From Escherichia coli (lineage in GTDB: Bacteria; Pseudomonadota; Gammaproteobacteria; Enterobacterales; Enterobacteriaceae): DNA of 64,000 nt. The stretch lies in assembly GCF_024700885.2 (NCBI RefSeq), contig NZ_CP117016.1; one strand, 5' to 3'. Below, piece by piece: positions 825-30,036 of the stretch; the stretch's first letter is position 1, and every line of letters begins with the position of its first letter. The notes under the pieces were generated by a model that saw nothing but the letters and a program-made list of their open reading frames with translations, was not told the DNA's origin and ran no database searches. The position numbers and the translations under genes were made by a program.

Positions 825-1056
825 GCTTATTTATATCCTTTTTATTTACTTACCTGTAGACTTACTCGGTTTTAGTCCCGGAGTGTTGCCAGGAGTATCT
901 TTATTATCTCGTCGGCGTTGATCCGGTTTTCCTGTCGATTTAGCAATCGGTTTTGGACCAAGTTTAAGGCCCCATGATAATTATCCTTTAGAAATGTAAG
1001 AGGGAACTCCTCAGCATTGGTATATTCTATACCGAGAAATTTTTCAATGGGATGTA
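825..1056. repeat. Direct repeat copy A (about 232 bp); partner at 29806-30036
   Basis: Read directly: gcttatttatatcc...ccaggagtatctttattatc.cgtcggcgttgatccggttttcctgtcga...ggtatattctata..gagaaatttttcaatggga recurs in the same orientation at 29806-30036 with roughly 90 percent identity by eye. Confidence 0.8.
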
Positions 1057-1663
1057 TGGGTCCACCACATATTGTAATTTTTATTCTCACATAAGGAAGG
1101 TAATACGCATTAAATGTCTTATCAGGACTATCATCAACCGTGGCCTTGACTAATCTGTATGAACAAACAACACCTCTCACACGACAGTTATAATGATTGT
1201 TATGTTTTCTCACTGTAAATAAATCTGTTTTTTTCAGATGAGTCAGGTAATAAACAAACCGACTCGGTATCAATAACAACTGCTCCTGTTAACGAGTAAA
1301 TTTTCATAATGCATGCCGACATAAAAAGTAATAACAAACACAGTCACAAAAATACCATAAACAACAAGATTTAACAATACCCTCTGTCCACAACAAGCGG
1401 GCCGACGCCCCCAAGTAATATCGAGTAAGCAGCCTGACAATCACTGCTTATCATTACCTGTAATTATCGTCATAAAACAATTAATATCATTATATCTGAG
1501 ATAATTATATGATACAGTCTCTGTCATATAAGTCACCACTGATAGAGTACTCACTTAGCCATGTGCTCACTATTGCTGAGTAAGACAAAACGGCCTCTAT
1601 GATAAACACATTCAGACTCAATAAGAGGAGTTCGTTATGAAAAGCCCGATAGACAGAAACATC

Positions 1664-2818
1664 TCACTTTTCTCTAACCTTATCCTTTAATAGTCCCTCA
1701 TTTCTCAGCCTTAAATAGCCAATCTCACAATTGAACTTGTTAATATTATGCTGTATCATTTCAAGCTCTCTGTTGATATCAACTTTACTCATATTCTGGT
1801 TATTATATAAGTCTGATATTTTTATATTTACAGGCATGTCATACTCAAGAAAGGTATTTTTCAGATCGTAAGCAATCGTTTTCAACTTAGATATAGTAAT
1901 ATACCCCCCATCATTTTCAATTACATTCAGTGTTTCCGTAAAATCATCAATCTTCTTTCCAAGCTTAGACCAGGAGTCTGCTGAATTAGGGAGGGAGACT
2001 GAACATCCAGAATAGTTCATAACCATTTCAGTAATAAAGCTATCAGGTATGATGCCCCTAAGTTTCAGTACTGTTTCCGGCCTGCCAGCATAGTTCATTA
2101 CAACGGTTATTAGAGCACCCGATATGAAAGAAACGACGTTATAATATATGCGCAGTTTCTTATCTTTCTTAATTAACGTATTGTGTTCTGGTCCAGCAGT
2201 ATAATTGGAGTCAATATTCGTAGGTAAACCACTGCTAAAAGACCGAATATCTTTCGCATCATGTGATCCTGAATCATGATGTGCGGCATCAGTACTTTCT
2301 GAGTCATCACTCTTTTGTCTCTTGAGTTCAGCCAGCATATCTGAAACGATAAAAAATTTGCCAGAAAGAAGATTGTATTCGAGATCAGCCAATAATGTTA
2401 ATGCATCCTCCAGCAAGGTTAATGACGAGTAGGTTTTCTCATCATCAGGCAGACTTTGCATAGCAGGAATAACATTTTTAATATACCAGATAAGAATATT
2501 CGTCCGCATCTGAGTGGCCGTAACATGAGGCCAGCATTTTTCTTTTACAAATGAATCTGCAAATTTCCATGAGGAAAGCGCCAGTCCTTCCCAGCTATAT
2601 AGATTGGCTGAAATAAGACAGAACCATGCTCCTGTCTGAAGATCATATCCGTTTTCCATAAATAAAGAAAGACATCTTTTTTCCAGAGTCATCCAATATG
2701 CTCTTTCACATTTGGCCGGACTCAGATTGTTCATACTATAACTAATCCAAAGAAACTCTTTATTATTCCGGGGATCAGTAGTACTTACTGCAATATCTAG
2801 TATAAAATTTTTATCCAT
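1664..2818 (-). CDS. ImpA-N-domain protein, VasL-like T6SS accessory protein (AT-rich, divergent copy)
   Basis: 384 aa; N-terminal region LSLFMENGYDLQTGAWFCLISANLYSWEGLALSSW aligns with LRLYEHNGVELQTASWYTIARMHTTGLSGLNEGLALIVAL of the 34740-36107 protein and with the ImpA-N pattern of TssA. Confidence 0.5.
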   Translation of the reverse strand: MDKNFILDIAVSTTDPRNNKEFLWISYSMNNLSPAKCERAYWMTLEKRCLSLFMENGYDLQTGAWFCLISANLYSWEGLALSSWKFADSFVKEKCWPHVTATQMRTNILIWYIKNVIPAMQSLPDDEKTYSSLTLLEDALTLLADLEYNLLSGKFFIVSDMLAELKRQKSDDSESTDAAHHDSGSHDAKDIRSFSSGLPTNIDSNYTAGPEHNTLIKKDKKLRIYYNVVSFISGALITVVMNYAGRPETVLKLRGIIPDSFITEMVMNYSGCSVSLPNSADSWSKLGKKIDDFTETLNVIENDGGYITISKLKTIAYDLKNTFLEYDMPVNIKISDLYNNQNMSKVDINRELEMIQHNINKFNCEIGYLRLRNEGLLKDKVREK

Positions 2819-2882
2819 TTCCTCAAGCCATTGTTATTATCCCATATATGCCTGTTACCTGATGGAGATAACATTAACATAG

Positions 2883-3286
2883 TGAACCGCCCCAGGTTTC
2901 CTGGAGAGTGTTTTATCTGTGAACTCAGGCTGCCAGATCATTGTTTCCGACGGAAGCCTGGCGAAGGATATCGTTACTGCGGCGCAGTTCACGATTTTCA
3001 CGCTCCAGCTCTTTCAGACGCTGACGTTCAGCGGTGGTGAGCCCTCCATCACCGCCCCCGGTATCCCGCTCATGCTGGCGACCCCAGACACGCAGAGTCT
3101 CCGGTGTACAGCCAATCTTTGGGGCAATGGAACAAATTACCGCCCATTATGAGTCATATTCGCCTGACTTTCCAGAACTATACGAATCACCCTATGACGA
3201 ACTTCGGGGGAAAAACGAGTATTTTTAGTCATCCTGTTTACCTCTTTCTCAGGAAGTTTAGTCTCCAGGATTTCCGGGGCGGTTCA
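2883..3286 (-). mobile_element. Internally deleted IS629/IS3411-like (IS3 family) element, about 404 bp, retaining both terminal inverted repeats
   Basis: Starts TGAACCGCCCCAGGTTTCCTGGAGAGTGTTTTATCTGTGAACTC and ends ...GGGGCGGTTCA. The interior holds only an orfA C-terminal segment that is near-identical to part of the full copy at 5584-6891. Confidence 0.75.
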
Positions 3287-3296
3287 CTACTCCTAT

Positions 3297-3863
3297 TCAA
3301 AATCGTTTCTTGAAATCAGAAAGGGCGTATTTCAGATCAGAACCACAAAGAGCTCTCTGGGATTCACTTAATACATCCTTAACAGGAATAATCCCTTTTT
3401 TTCTTGAGGAATAAAACGCCATACCATCATCATTTTTTAATCTCCAGTCTCTCGATATATCAACCTCACCAAGGTATCCGGTAACGACCAGACTATGATA
3501 CCCATGTTCATTCATAATTTCTTTCAGCCGTTGTGCGAAGGCAGGGGTTCTCGAATGTATCCCCGAGGCGCAAGTCAATACTCTGATATCTATGAAGTTC
3601 TTTGGTAAACGTCTATTCATTAATAGAGTGGCTAATGCTAAGGGATTCAACGTTGGCCCAGTTGCTGAACCTGTCCCAATAACTGATGTGTTGCCATGAG
3701 CAACGATGTATAACGTATCGCTCGATTTAAGAAAGGATAAAGGTGTTTTGTGTGAAGCTTTCACACCATAACATTCTTTATTCTTCATTTTCTGATACTT
3801 AACTTCGGCATCAAGAAAAGTGTCATTTTCATCCATTTGAAATGGGAAAAAGTAAATAATCAT
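3297..3863 (-). CDS. Hypothetical protein (188 aa), AT-rich orphan gene
   Basis: Intact ORF abutting the mini IS element; contains LYIVAHGNTSVIGTGSATGPT; no family recognised by eye. Confidence 0.4.
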   Translation of the reverse strand: MIIYFFPFQMDENDTFLDAEVKYQKMKNKECYGVKASHKTPLSFLKSSDTLYIVAHGNTSVIGTGSATGPTLNPLALATLLMNRRLPKNFIDIRVLTCASGIHSRTPAFAQRLKEIMNEHGYHSLVVTGYLGEVDISRDWRLKNDDGMAFYSSRKKGIIPVKDVLSESQRALCGSDLKYALSDFKKRF

Positions 3864-28790: not shown

Positions 28791-28993
28791 TCTTTCCGCT
28801 TCTGACAGCTTATTTCGGGGAGATCTGTTTACAGTATCGGATCTTCGGTCCGTGGTGATGACTTTGCCATTAGTCCAGCGCTGAAGTGTCCGAACAGAAA
28901 TACCGATACACCTACAAGCCTGACTTTTCCGGGCGCCGTTGATAACGGCCTCGTGGATAAGAGAAATAATTTTACGCCGCTCCAGGAGAGGGG

Positions 28994-29536
28994 TCAGTCT
29001 TCCTCGCTGTTGTCCCAGAGGGCATTGAACTTTTCCCTTAATATAAGCAGGGCAGCTGCTTCCGCCAGAGCTTTATCTTTGCGCTTAAGCTCTTTCTCCA
29101 GTTCTCGTAACTTATTTTTTGCGTCACGCAATGCCCTGTCTGTTCGGATATTTTCCGTCAATTTCTTTTCATGCGCTTGAATTGAGATAGCCCGCCATTC
29201 TTTAACCTGTTCAACAAACAATCCCGTGCGTCGGCAATAATCAGCAAGTTCCATTTCTGACAGCGTAGCCGTCTCAAGAACAACTGAGAATCGACGCTCC
29301 GGTGTCCAGTCTTCAACATCAACGGAGGTAATCTTTTCATTTTCAGGTAAAAGTCCTTGCTCCACTAACTCACATCTCCATTTTGATACAACTGAGGCAC
29401 TGATCTTCAGCTTACGGGCTATCTGACGATGTGACCAGCAGTATGGTGGTAAAAGCCATATCAGTCCTTTCTCTTTGAGCTCACTTGGTATTGGTTGTCC
29501 TGGCATTGTTATCTCCTTAAAAAATTGAGGCGACAA
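28994..29536 (-). CDS. IS3-family transposase OrfA
   Basis: 180 aa; HTH region followed by a coiled-coil/leucine-zipper segment (LRDAKNKLRELEKELKRKDKALAEAAALLIL). Confidence 0.75.
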   Translation of the reverse strand: MSPQFFKEITMPGQPIPSELKEKGLIWLLPPYCWSHRQIARKLKISASVVSKWRCELVEQGLLPENEKITSVDVEDWTPERRFSVVLETATLSEMELADYCRRTGLFVEQVKEWRAISIQAHEKKLTENIRTDRALRDAKNKLRELEKELKRKDKALAEAAALLILREKFNALWDNSEED

Positions 29537-29561
29537 CTATGCTGACACAGGGGGTTATTGA

Positions 29562-29797
29562 GTGATCTCCTTTCATGAAAATACGCAACTGCTGGCAGAA
29601 TGGCAGATTACTATAACTGGGAACGTCCTCATAGCGCTCACAACGGTAAAACTCCGATGGAACGCTACTTTGAACTTGCTGAGAAAACACCATACTCTGA
29701 TGCCGTTCATGCAAACTATCAGCCCAATGAAGAGCATATACAGGAACAGAATTACAAGCTTGAACTTGAACTGAGAAAATTAAAACGATGTCTATGA
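29562..29797 (+). pseudogene. IS481-family transposase C-terminal fragment
   Basis: DYYNWERPHSAHNGKTPMERYFELAEK matches the YNxxRPHxxLxGxTP C-terminal motif of rve transposases; an upstream frame change and stop are present. Confidence 0.55.
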
Positions 29798-29805
29798 ATC
29801 ACACA

Positions 29806-30036
29806 GCTTATTTATATCCTTATTTTTTTACTTACCTGTGGACTTACTTGGCTTTAGTCCCGAGGTATTGCCAGGAGTATCTTTATTATCGCGTCGGCGT
29901 TGATCCGGTTTTCCTGTCGACTTAGCAATTGGTTTTGGACCTAGTTTAAGACCCATGATAGTTATCCTTCGAGATGTAAGAGGAATGCCCTCAACATTGG
30001 TATATTCTATACTGAGAAATTTTTCAATGGGAATGT
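29806..30036. repeat. Direct repeat copy B (about 231 bp); partner at 825-1056
   Basis: See copy A; same orientation, flanking sequences diverge on both sides. Confidence 0.8.

Follow-up and report, generated by a model that had tools for sequence, protein, structure and literature searches.

Direct repeats bracketing the aai type VI secretion block of an Escherichia coli tRNA-Phe island as a probable scar of insertion sequence-driven mosaic assembly

We analysed a 64,000-nucleotide stretch of Escherichia coli DNA (contig NZ_CP117016.1 of assembly GCF_024700885.2; hereafter, the window) in which two direct repeats of ~230 bp enclose the aai (Sci-2) type VI secretion system (T6SS). The repeat most likely represents the 229 bp still shared by two copies of one island-backbone junction that were truncated independently and then joined by insertion sequence (IS)-driven assembly. 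The repeats thus exist as described but are nothing unusual, being in all likelihood a relic of IS-driven mosaic assembly that has the look of flanking repeats. The tested stretches match E. coli BEC1-S17-ESBL-09 (NZ_AP022298.1, reverse strand) at 100% identity and enteroaggregative E. coli (EAEC) strains 042 and O104:H4 at 99.9%, indicating that its island is the same as that of EAEC 042/O104:H4.

The two copies, located by MAFFT and blastn at positions 825–1052 (copy A) and 29806–30032 (copy B), lie in the same orientation and bracket the T6SS block, as a preliminary description of the window had proposed. Their exact alignment comprises 229 columns with three 1-nt indels and 205 identical positions (89.5%), in good agreement with the earlier estimate of about 90%, and the blastn E-value of the pair (1e-82) indicates that the similarity is not due to chance. 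The left ends given in that description were also correct, whereas the right ends (1056 and 30036) were placed 3–4 nt too far. The edges are sharp, with identity falling to the background level (~30%) immediately outside both ends of the repeats. The longest perfect runs between the copies are 29, 23, 19 and 18 bp, and the repeat finder reports the pair as two parts split by the indels. The enclosed content was likewise described correctly, namely a VasL gene, the IS629-type copies, the aai T6SS and debris of IS630, IS481 and IS3 elements.

The repeated segment is a conserved backbone junction of E. coli tRNA-Phe islands, at which the sngABC genes converge with a 42-codon small open reading frame (sORF) and the genes for a 214-aa protein, perC, ibrB and ibrA. 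The 230-bp segment is present in 872 of the 5,426 complete E. coli genomes (~16%), usually as a single copy (median 1, maximum 3–4 per genome), and the sngC side is conserved in 753 of the 891 records. The single-copy junction, consisting of sngC, the segment and the 214-aa/perC/ibrB module, is contiguous in strain 35, in E70, in CFT073 and in the pheU island of the same strain as the window (NZ_AP022298.1, 4569416–4594204). In strain 35 and the pheU island, the order is intact: the genes for a TerB-N protein, an ATPase and a DEAD/DEAH helicase precede the segment, and a 107-aa open reading frame (ORF), the 214-aa ORF, perC, ibrB and ibrA lie on the opposite strand. CFT073 and E70 have the same junction, with the helicase gene reduced to a 3′ remnant. 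Using a chimeric probe, in which the left half of copy A and its flank were joined to the right half of copy B and its flank, we found 512 complete-genome E. coli records in which one contiguous place covers at least 80% of the probe. The junction is therefore a common backbone feature, from which the window departs in having two partial copies located 29 kb apart. The contiguity of the sngC 3′ end, its terminator, the sORF and the ibr module identifies the segment as a junction of the Phe-tRNA island backbone.

The operon next to the third, intact copy of the junction in the pheU island encodes proteins that match the PADLOC profiles SngA, SngB and SngC (E = 1e-100, 4e-186 and 1e-277, respectively). 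These are the components of Shango, a three-gene anti-phage system (PMC10250203) made up of the TerB-like SngA, the ATPase SngB and the DEAD/DEAH helicase SngC (PMC10250203; bioRxiv 10.1101/2022.05.11.491447). The pheU island also contains tRNA-Phe, an integrase gene, the sORF, perC/ibrBA, VasL/ImpA relics and a 3′-5′ exonuclease gene, and lacks a T6SS. The presence of the third junction copy in this island indicates that the pheV and pheU islands share one backbone; this strain thus carries the T6SS island at pheV and a second, T6SS-less backbone copy at pheU. The IbrA-like 3′-phosphoadenosine 5′-phosphosulfate (PAPS) reductases encoded at 30882–33091 in the window and in the pheU island show weak PADLOC matches to BrxP and DndC. 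The backbone sets Shango back-to-back with a ParB-like/PAPS-reductase pair, for which a role in DNA modification or defence is possible.

Each copy in the window retains a different side of this junction. The homology of copy A to other alleles extends leftward into sngC and stops at 1052 in all of them, and copy A is known only as part of a 424-bp orphan fragment (629–1052). The sngC remnant at its left (170 bp) shares 91–93% identity with the 3′ portion of intact DEAD/DEAH helicase genes, and its own left end is cut by IS66-family debris. The window therefore resembles a Shango locus in that the left flank of copy A is the sngC 3′ end and the intact paralogous locus matches three PADLOC profiles, but it holds only this pseudogene fragment and not a Shango system; the convergent sORF, moreover, is absent from the three-gene description and is also found without Shango. 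Beyond the stop codon, a terminator hairpin is predicted (−14.6 kcal/mol, z = −3.2), and the intact third copy folds the same hairpin (−17.2 kcal/mol). Position 825, where copy A begins, is the first base of the hairpin loop. The homology of copy B begins at 29806 and runs rightward for 1.6–2 kb or more into the ibr module, as seen with CFT073, strain 35 and E70. The left arm of the terminator has been replaced in copy B, where no hairpin is predicted (−2.8 kcal/mol). A variant of allele A was seen in strain B-1109, which has a 12-bp duplication in the terminator loop (equivalent to ~823–828 of the window) and is otherwise identical; it shares the frameshift of the copy A sORF.

Both inner edges of the repeats are exact termini of IS481-family elements. 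To the right of position 1052 lies a terminal piece of ~36–44 bp that matches one end of an IS481-type element of plasmid pTB4328 with 91% identity over 44 nt. The imperfect inverted repeats and 5-bp target duplication (GGAGC) of the full pTB4328 element set its end at TGTATGGG. Further to the right, this piece is followed by more IS debris and then by VasL. The left edge of copy B is the right inverted-repeat terminus of an IS481-family element that entered the hairpin loop of the sngC terminator. Three independent insertions of this element, those in the window and at two other loci (L030 and L031), share their sequence as far as the same ACA and differ beyond it, and the full copy at L030 also has the matching left inverted repeat. 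The two abutting termini face the enclosed DNA from opposite sides. Because homology stops at 1052 and 29806 and exact IS termini are found there, the limits of the repeat were set by two unrelated IS insertions in different backbone copies and are not the ends of a discrete element. A weak tblastx similarity beyond the right edge of copy A (1109–987 versus 30089–29967) is explained by chance and the IS fragment.

The repeats are also distinct from the products of a single transposable element. Target-site duplication does not account for them, given that they are 229 bp long and diverged and abut termini of different IS481-family elements. The preliminary description had named a multicopy element without relation to island boundaries, such as an IS end, as a case against an island-boundary role. 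The segment is indeed common, occurring in ~16% of the genomes without relation to such boundaries, but it is not an IS end; in particular, no inverted repeats of at least 60 nt, as might mark an IS or a miniature inverted-repeat transposable element, were reported in the window. The mosaicism of genomic islands is driven by deletions adjacent to IS elements and by IS-mediated cointegration, including those due to the IS481 and IS3 families. The window resembles such cases in that each novel junction is an exact IS481-family terminus with the IS truncated on the far side, which is the signature of an insertion followed by an IS-adjacent deletion or rearrangement. It differs from them in that two such events, in two backbone copies, left an overlap of 229 bp that mimics a flanking repeat. 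As a methodological lesson, independent IS truncations of paralogous backbones can produce what appear to be purposeful flanking repeats.

To place the two copies among known alleles, we used an alignment of eight alleles, consisting of copies A and B and six others. In this panel, the substitutions specific to allele A are distributed uniformly across the sngC remnant and the repeat without a mosaic switch, copy B resembles the CFT073 and strain 35 alleles both left and right of the break point of copy A, and the two copies are not sister lineages. Copy B is closer to the alleles of other strains (94–99%) than to copy A. Allele A (629–1052) is 100% identical in 40 genomes and 97.2% identical in one, with the next best match at 91.5%, and allele B together with its module is at least 99% identical only in 41 aai carriers, with the next best match at 95.9%. 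The copies of the sORF in A and B differ by 10 synonymous substitutions and one nonsynonymous substitution, corresponding to a synonymous divergence (dS) of about 0.41. This value is far above the divergence typically found within E. coli. To judge from these alleles, copies A and B probably derive from different backbone lineages (~10% apart), with no mechanism of repeat generation involved.

Divergence of this extent bears directly on in-situ duplication, in which the junction would have been copied within one island by a tandem or IS-mediated event and the copies would then have diverged. Although A and B share a base at two sites where the six other panel alleles lack it, and the window contains a second collinear paralogous block with a similar spacing, this origin is highly improbable: the dS between the copies is to be set against an identity of at least 99.7% of the whole T6SS block among its carriers, copy B is nearer to the alleles of other strains than to copy A, and the second block is only 71% identical as compared with 90% for the repeat, so that the two did not arise in one duplication.

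The anatomy of the copies, the ancestral single-copy arrangement, the IS termini, the divergence of the alleles and the lack of mosaics and hybrids are direct observations; how the parts were joined, and in which order, we infer as follows. In the intact backbone, sngABC ends in the hairpin terminator, beyond which the sORF and then the 214-aa gene, perC, ibrB and ibrA lie on the other strand. In lineage A, an IS481-family element probably entered at junction 1052|1053, which lies 77 bp upstream of the start of the sORF, and everything beyond this junction would later have been replaced, so that copy A retains the sORF with 77 bp before it, together with the terminator and the 3′ end of sngC. 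In lineage B, a different IS481-family element probably entered the terminator loop (junction 29805|29806), and everything to its left would later have been replaced, so that copy B retains half of the terminator and, to the right of it, the sORF and all of the right-hand module. Because the copies are ~10% diverged and the dS of the sORF is ~0.4, the two lineages would have been united by horizontal transfer and IS-mediated joining during the assembly of the aai T6SS into the Phe-tRNA island. This may have occurred by tandem accretion of two islands followed by IS-adjacent deletions, or by cointegration of a T6SS-bearing replicon.

Several findings weigh against this reconstruction. The 41–43 carriers all have one structure, with at least 99.7% identity, and no intermediate genome was found among them. 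No donor of allele A was found either, and an A-specific 24-mer had no match in the species representatives of GTDB. The two bases shared by A and B and absent from the six other panel alleles could reflect a little gene conversion between the copies, or chance; they lie in alignment columns 244 and 372 (~836/29817 and ~963/29945 in the window). Finally, the second paralogous block shows that the history of the island is more complex than two simple truncations.

The same arrangement could also have arisen by Campbell-type capture, in which a plasmid or an excised element, circular in form and bearing the T6SS and one segment, entered a backbone copy by a single homologous crossover. The topology (native left flank, copy, insert, copy, native right flank) fits this model, relatives of the aai-type T6SS are borne on plasmids, and a natural recombinant within the segment exists in strain 35, which is CRE1540-like at the left and B-like at the right. 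However, capture predicts reciprocal mosaics, whereas copy A is uniformly of the A type and continuous with an equally diverged sngC remnant, and copy B resembles CFT073 and strain 35 throughout and passes without a break into its right flank. In addition, both inner flanks consist of IS481 termini and not of donor versions of sngC or the ibr module. We therefore consider capture by a single crossover to be quite unlikely and prefer the joining of two truncated junctions.

The preliminary description had suggested that the repeats might be att-like remnants of island integration, that is, attL/attR-type sites generated by site-specific integration of the T6SS island. The attachment repeats of tRNA-associated islands, such as the direct repeats of the pathogenicity islands of uropathogenic E. 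coli 536 and those of the high-pathogenicity island, are 15–50 bp long, nearly identical, derived from tRNA 3′ ends and recognised by an integrase encoded next to them. The repeats analysed here are like them in being direct repeats that bracket acquired DNA, and this orientation and position constitute the sole support for an att-like origin; their other features are not shared. The repeats are 229 bp long and 10% diverged, with indels. ARAGORN detected no tRNA gene in the window, the 23-mer from the 3′ end of pheV/pheU had no match in the window at up to three mismatches, and no integrase gene is annotated next to either repeat copy. Thus, neither a tRNA 3′-derived sequence nor a short, near-identical core beside an integrase is found at the repeats. 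Furthermore, the segment is an internal part of a backbone that 512 records show uninterrupted, and its edges in the window are IS termini. The true att region of the island is at pheV, where the island is attached in this strain, and pheV and the integrase gene are located ~29.5 kb to the left of the window. An att-like origin is therefore extremely improbable, and the aai block of 29 kb does not constitute a discrete element with att sites at its ends that could be excised.

Recombinational loss or amplification of the enclosed 29 kb had also been suggested, which would make the repeats an active substrate at which RecA-dependent crossover deletes or amplifies the aai T6SS in present-day EAEC populations. 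Direct repeats of 229 bp with the perfect runs given above, and the natural recombination inside the segment in strain 35, are in line with this idea. The preliminary description had further proposed, as a check, a search for related genomes with a single repeat copy and without the intervening 29 kb; the 512 records joining the sngC flank to the 214-aa/perC/ibrBA flank give this check a positive outcome in one sense, but none of them is an A/B hybrid. No such deletion product was detected in the 5,426 complete E. coli genomes, in which the best full-length match to the chimeric probe was 94.9%, and in all 41 carriers of allele A the segment occurs at least once more. Copy A was seen to be lost only in EAEC 55989 (NC_011748.1, 3352000–3401115), as part of an IS-associated rearrangement in which VasL and the relic block are also absent while the aai T6SS and copy B are kept. 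In this strain, the pic region is inverted and adjoins an IS3-type element and a group II intron. A sequence divergence of 10% strongly depresses RecA-dependent recombination when mismatch repair is active. An active role as a recombination substrate is thus very unlikely, and the repeats are better regarded as a passive scar at which a rare RecA-dependent deletion of 29 kb is possible in principle. Precise excision at the repeats is accordingly not to be expected as a route for loss or transfer of the AggR-regulated T6SS; the observed changes in the island are IS-driven.

E70, which looks like the window minus the 29 kb, was considered as a possible product of A × B deletion and rejected, because it has the CFT073-type truncation point of sngC and none of the A-specific bases; the single copy of CFT073 also has none of these bases. 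E70 is thus an independent single-copy lineage. The allele of strain 35 is identical to the CRE1540 type up to ~50 bp (at most 77 bp) upstream of the sORF start and to the type of window copy B beyond that point. Strain 35 is a natural recombinant within the segment that links a Shango plus sORF unit to an ibrAB module. Homologous exchange at the junction accordingly does occur between islands, as module shuffling and not as deletion of the T6SS.

The most interesting by-product of this analysis is the 42-codon sORF within the repeat, which is widespread and uncharacterised. The minus-strand ORFs crossing the two copies do share only repeat-encoded residues, as had been noted, but the conclusion that the repeat is probably not a conserved gene was wrong. 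Two longer minus-strand ORFs of 135 aa and 107 aa were examined as candidate genes and rejected: they can be aligned over no more than 19 residues, and other alleles have stop codons or frameshifts upstream of the 42-codon core. In copy B, the sORF lies inside the annotated 107-aa ORF (29828–30151), the N-terminal 65 codons of which are not conserved, and a search with this ORF revealed that conservation is limited to the C-terminal 42 residues and that the N-terminal extensions are unrelated. Copy A carries an inactivated form, in which the 41 codons downstream of the frameshift encode 40 of 41 residues identical to those of copy B.

The consensus of the core is M[GA]LKPGPKPIAKSTGKPDQRRRDNKDTPGNTPGLKPSKSxxK, a basic peptide rich in Pro, Lys and Gly. 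It is 70–100% conserved in Escherichia, Klebsiella, Raoultella, Salmonella, Vibrio, Pseudomonas, a Spongiibacteraceae metagenome-assembled genome and Aliarcobacter, in all of which the conserved part opens with an ATG that follows a Shine-Dalgarno motif, and is also found on Rhizobiaceae plasmids. A well-spaced ATG and Shine-Dalgarno motif (AAGGA or AGGAGG) are present in the E. coli, Vibrio, Pseudomonas, Aliarcobacter, Proteus, Citrobacter and IncR copies, and a motif, CCTCTTAC, located ~20 nt upstream of the ATG is common to the enterobacterial copies compared. The pheU-island copy differs from that of pEcPF16 by 14 synonymous and 0 nonsynonymous substitutions, and the ratio of nonsynonymous to synonymous substitution rates (dN/dS) is 0.02–0.1, indicating that the sORF is under strong purifying selection. 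By its start codon and Shine-Dalgarno motif, its reading frame and the excess of synonymous changes, the sORF qualifies as a probable protein-coding gene.

An exhaustive search yielded 176 representative clusters of relatives, all of which are short proteins, and tblastn detected the sORF on 1,424 of the 72,556 PLSDB plasmids (~2%) and in one phage record. The 107-aa ORF had no match in NCBIfam, PADLOC or PHROGs, and the 42-aa peptide had none in Pfam, PHROGs or PDB; the exact 42-aa sequence has been deposited almost only as 'hypothetical protein'. For one N-terminally extended relative (P0088), a precomputed assignment to Pfam PF28031 is listed, and on rescanning against Pfam the sole result was a weak and uninformative match to fvmX1. 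The gene neighbourhood varies. The sORF is convergent with sngC in E. coli, in Raoultella and on IncR/IncF plasmids, and in a Klebsiella transfer-messenger RNA (tmRNA) island an AAA_15 plus HNH pair lies between the two. On small plasmids, it is divergent from a DUF6290-RelE/ParE pair, and in an integrative and conjugative element (ICE) of Spongiibacteraceae it is located at the boundary between cargo and the type IV secretion system (T4SS); other loci are near integrases or IS elements. The possibility that the sORF is, as a general rule, a Shango-specific fourth gene was rejected, because it occurs without Shango in Vibrio, Pseudomonas, Aliarcobacter, the Spongiibacteraceae ICE and small plasmids.

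Its wide distribution on plasmids and islands makes the sORF, which is here mis-annotated as a 107-aa ORF or left unannotated, a small-protein candidate in the biology of mobile elements and defence islands. The segment is probably conserved, and hence recognisable as a repeat, because it contains the gene for this basic 42-aa protein. A more ambitious reading, in which the sORF would be both a functional partner or regulator of the accompanying mobile modules and a homology patch for the exchange of island modules, including the aai T6SS, seems rather unlikely. The partner modules would then be Shango in Enterobacteria, DUF6290-RelE on small plasmids and the cargo/T4SS boundaries in ICEs. Known non-coding RNAs were also considered at the repeats and rejected: an Rfam search (evalue mode) of window positions 1–34000 found no family at either copy, the only matches being an IS3 ALIL pseudoknot and a sub-threshold match to RNA-OUT.

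The coordinates of the features in and around the repeats are given in Table 1.

Table 1. Features of the repeat-bracketed region (positions in the 64,000-nucleotide window)
Feature	Position	Strand	Remarks
sngC 3′ remnant	629–798	+	last ~56 codons and stop; RefSeq 'ATP-dependent helicase, missing N-terminus'; native left flank
sngC terminator	814–846	+	hairpin with 11-bp stem at 814–839, then T-run
Repeat copy A	825–1052		diverged allele
sORF, copy A	846–975	−	inactivated by +1 frameshift right after ATG (ATG GGG CCT TAA)
IS481-family terminal ~36–44 bp	1053–1088	−	terminus TGTATGGGTCCACC... forms right edge of copy A
AT-rich filler and IS debris	1089–1663		between orphan backbone fragment and T6SS block; IS3-like stretch at 1510–1596
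VasL-domain gene	1664–2818	−	native last gene of aai-type T6SS cluster; annotation and plasmid M3 ortholog
aai (Sci-2) T6SS core operon, tssB to tssH	7034–25401	−	includes aaiC; NZ_AP022298.1 annotation and EAEC literature (PMC2808357, PMC6730261)
tssH	7034–9583
tssB	24925–25401
IS debris	25797–29805		IS630 pseudogene, ketosynthase fragment, IS481-family remnant
IS481-family remnant	27518–27891 and 29586–29805		split by IS3 element at 27969–29506
IS481-family right inverted-repeat terminus	29780–29805	+	...GATGTCTATGAATCACACA; left edge of copy B
Repeat copy B	29806–30032		right side contiguous with rest of backbone module
sORF, copy B	29828–29956	−	intact, 42 codons (MGLKLGPKPIAKSTGKPDQRRRDNKDTPGNTSGLKPSKSTGK); AAGGA Shine-Dalgarno motif
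Native right flank	30217–33091	−	214-aa hypothetical, perC-family, ibrB-like and ibrA-like (PAPS reductase) genes

The island carries aaiC, pic, two T6SS clusters (aai/Sci-2 and Sci-1) and a heavy load of IS elements. A mosaic tRNA-Phe (pheU/pheV) pathogenicity island with T6SS clusters was reportedly described in EAEC 042 by Dudley et al. in 2006. In the text of two further papers, the EAEC mosaic pathogenicity island is presented as containing pic, the AggR-regulated aai (Sci-2) T6SS and the Sci-1 T6SS (PMC2808357, PMC6730261); the term 'direct repeat' does not occur there in connection with this island, and neither the repeats nor the Shango/ibrAB junction is described in that text.

Within the enclosed DNA, VasL is the natural end of the T6SS operon, since it directly follows tssH in related plasmid clusters; on plasmid M3, the ortholog directly after tssH is 81% identical. 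Relatives of the aai-type T6SS, with 78–81% nucleotide identity in VasL, are present on E. coli plasmids of 139–207 kb (M3 and p1_ST866). In the window, ~4 kb of IS-bracketed relics lie between VasL and tssH. At the other end of the block, the IS481-family remnant that is split by an IS3 element in the window is unsplit in EAEC 55989. The second paralogous block is collinear and in the same orientation (3983–4748 versus 35611–36467, 71% identity) and covers ImpA-N-like and small-ORF relics, which shows that further backbone-like fragments were swept into the island. Its left copy belongs to a stretch of ~2.3 kb that is bracketed by IS629-type copies (a partial one at 2883–3250 and a complete one at 5584–6855) and that also contains an N-terminal fragment of tssB (5138–5233).

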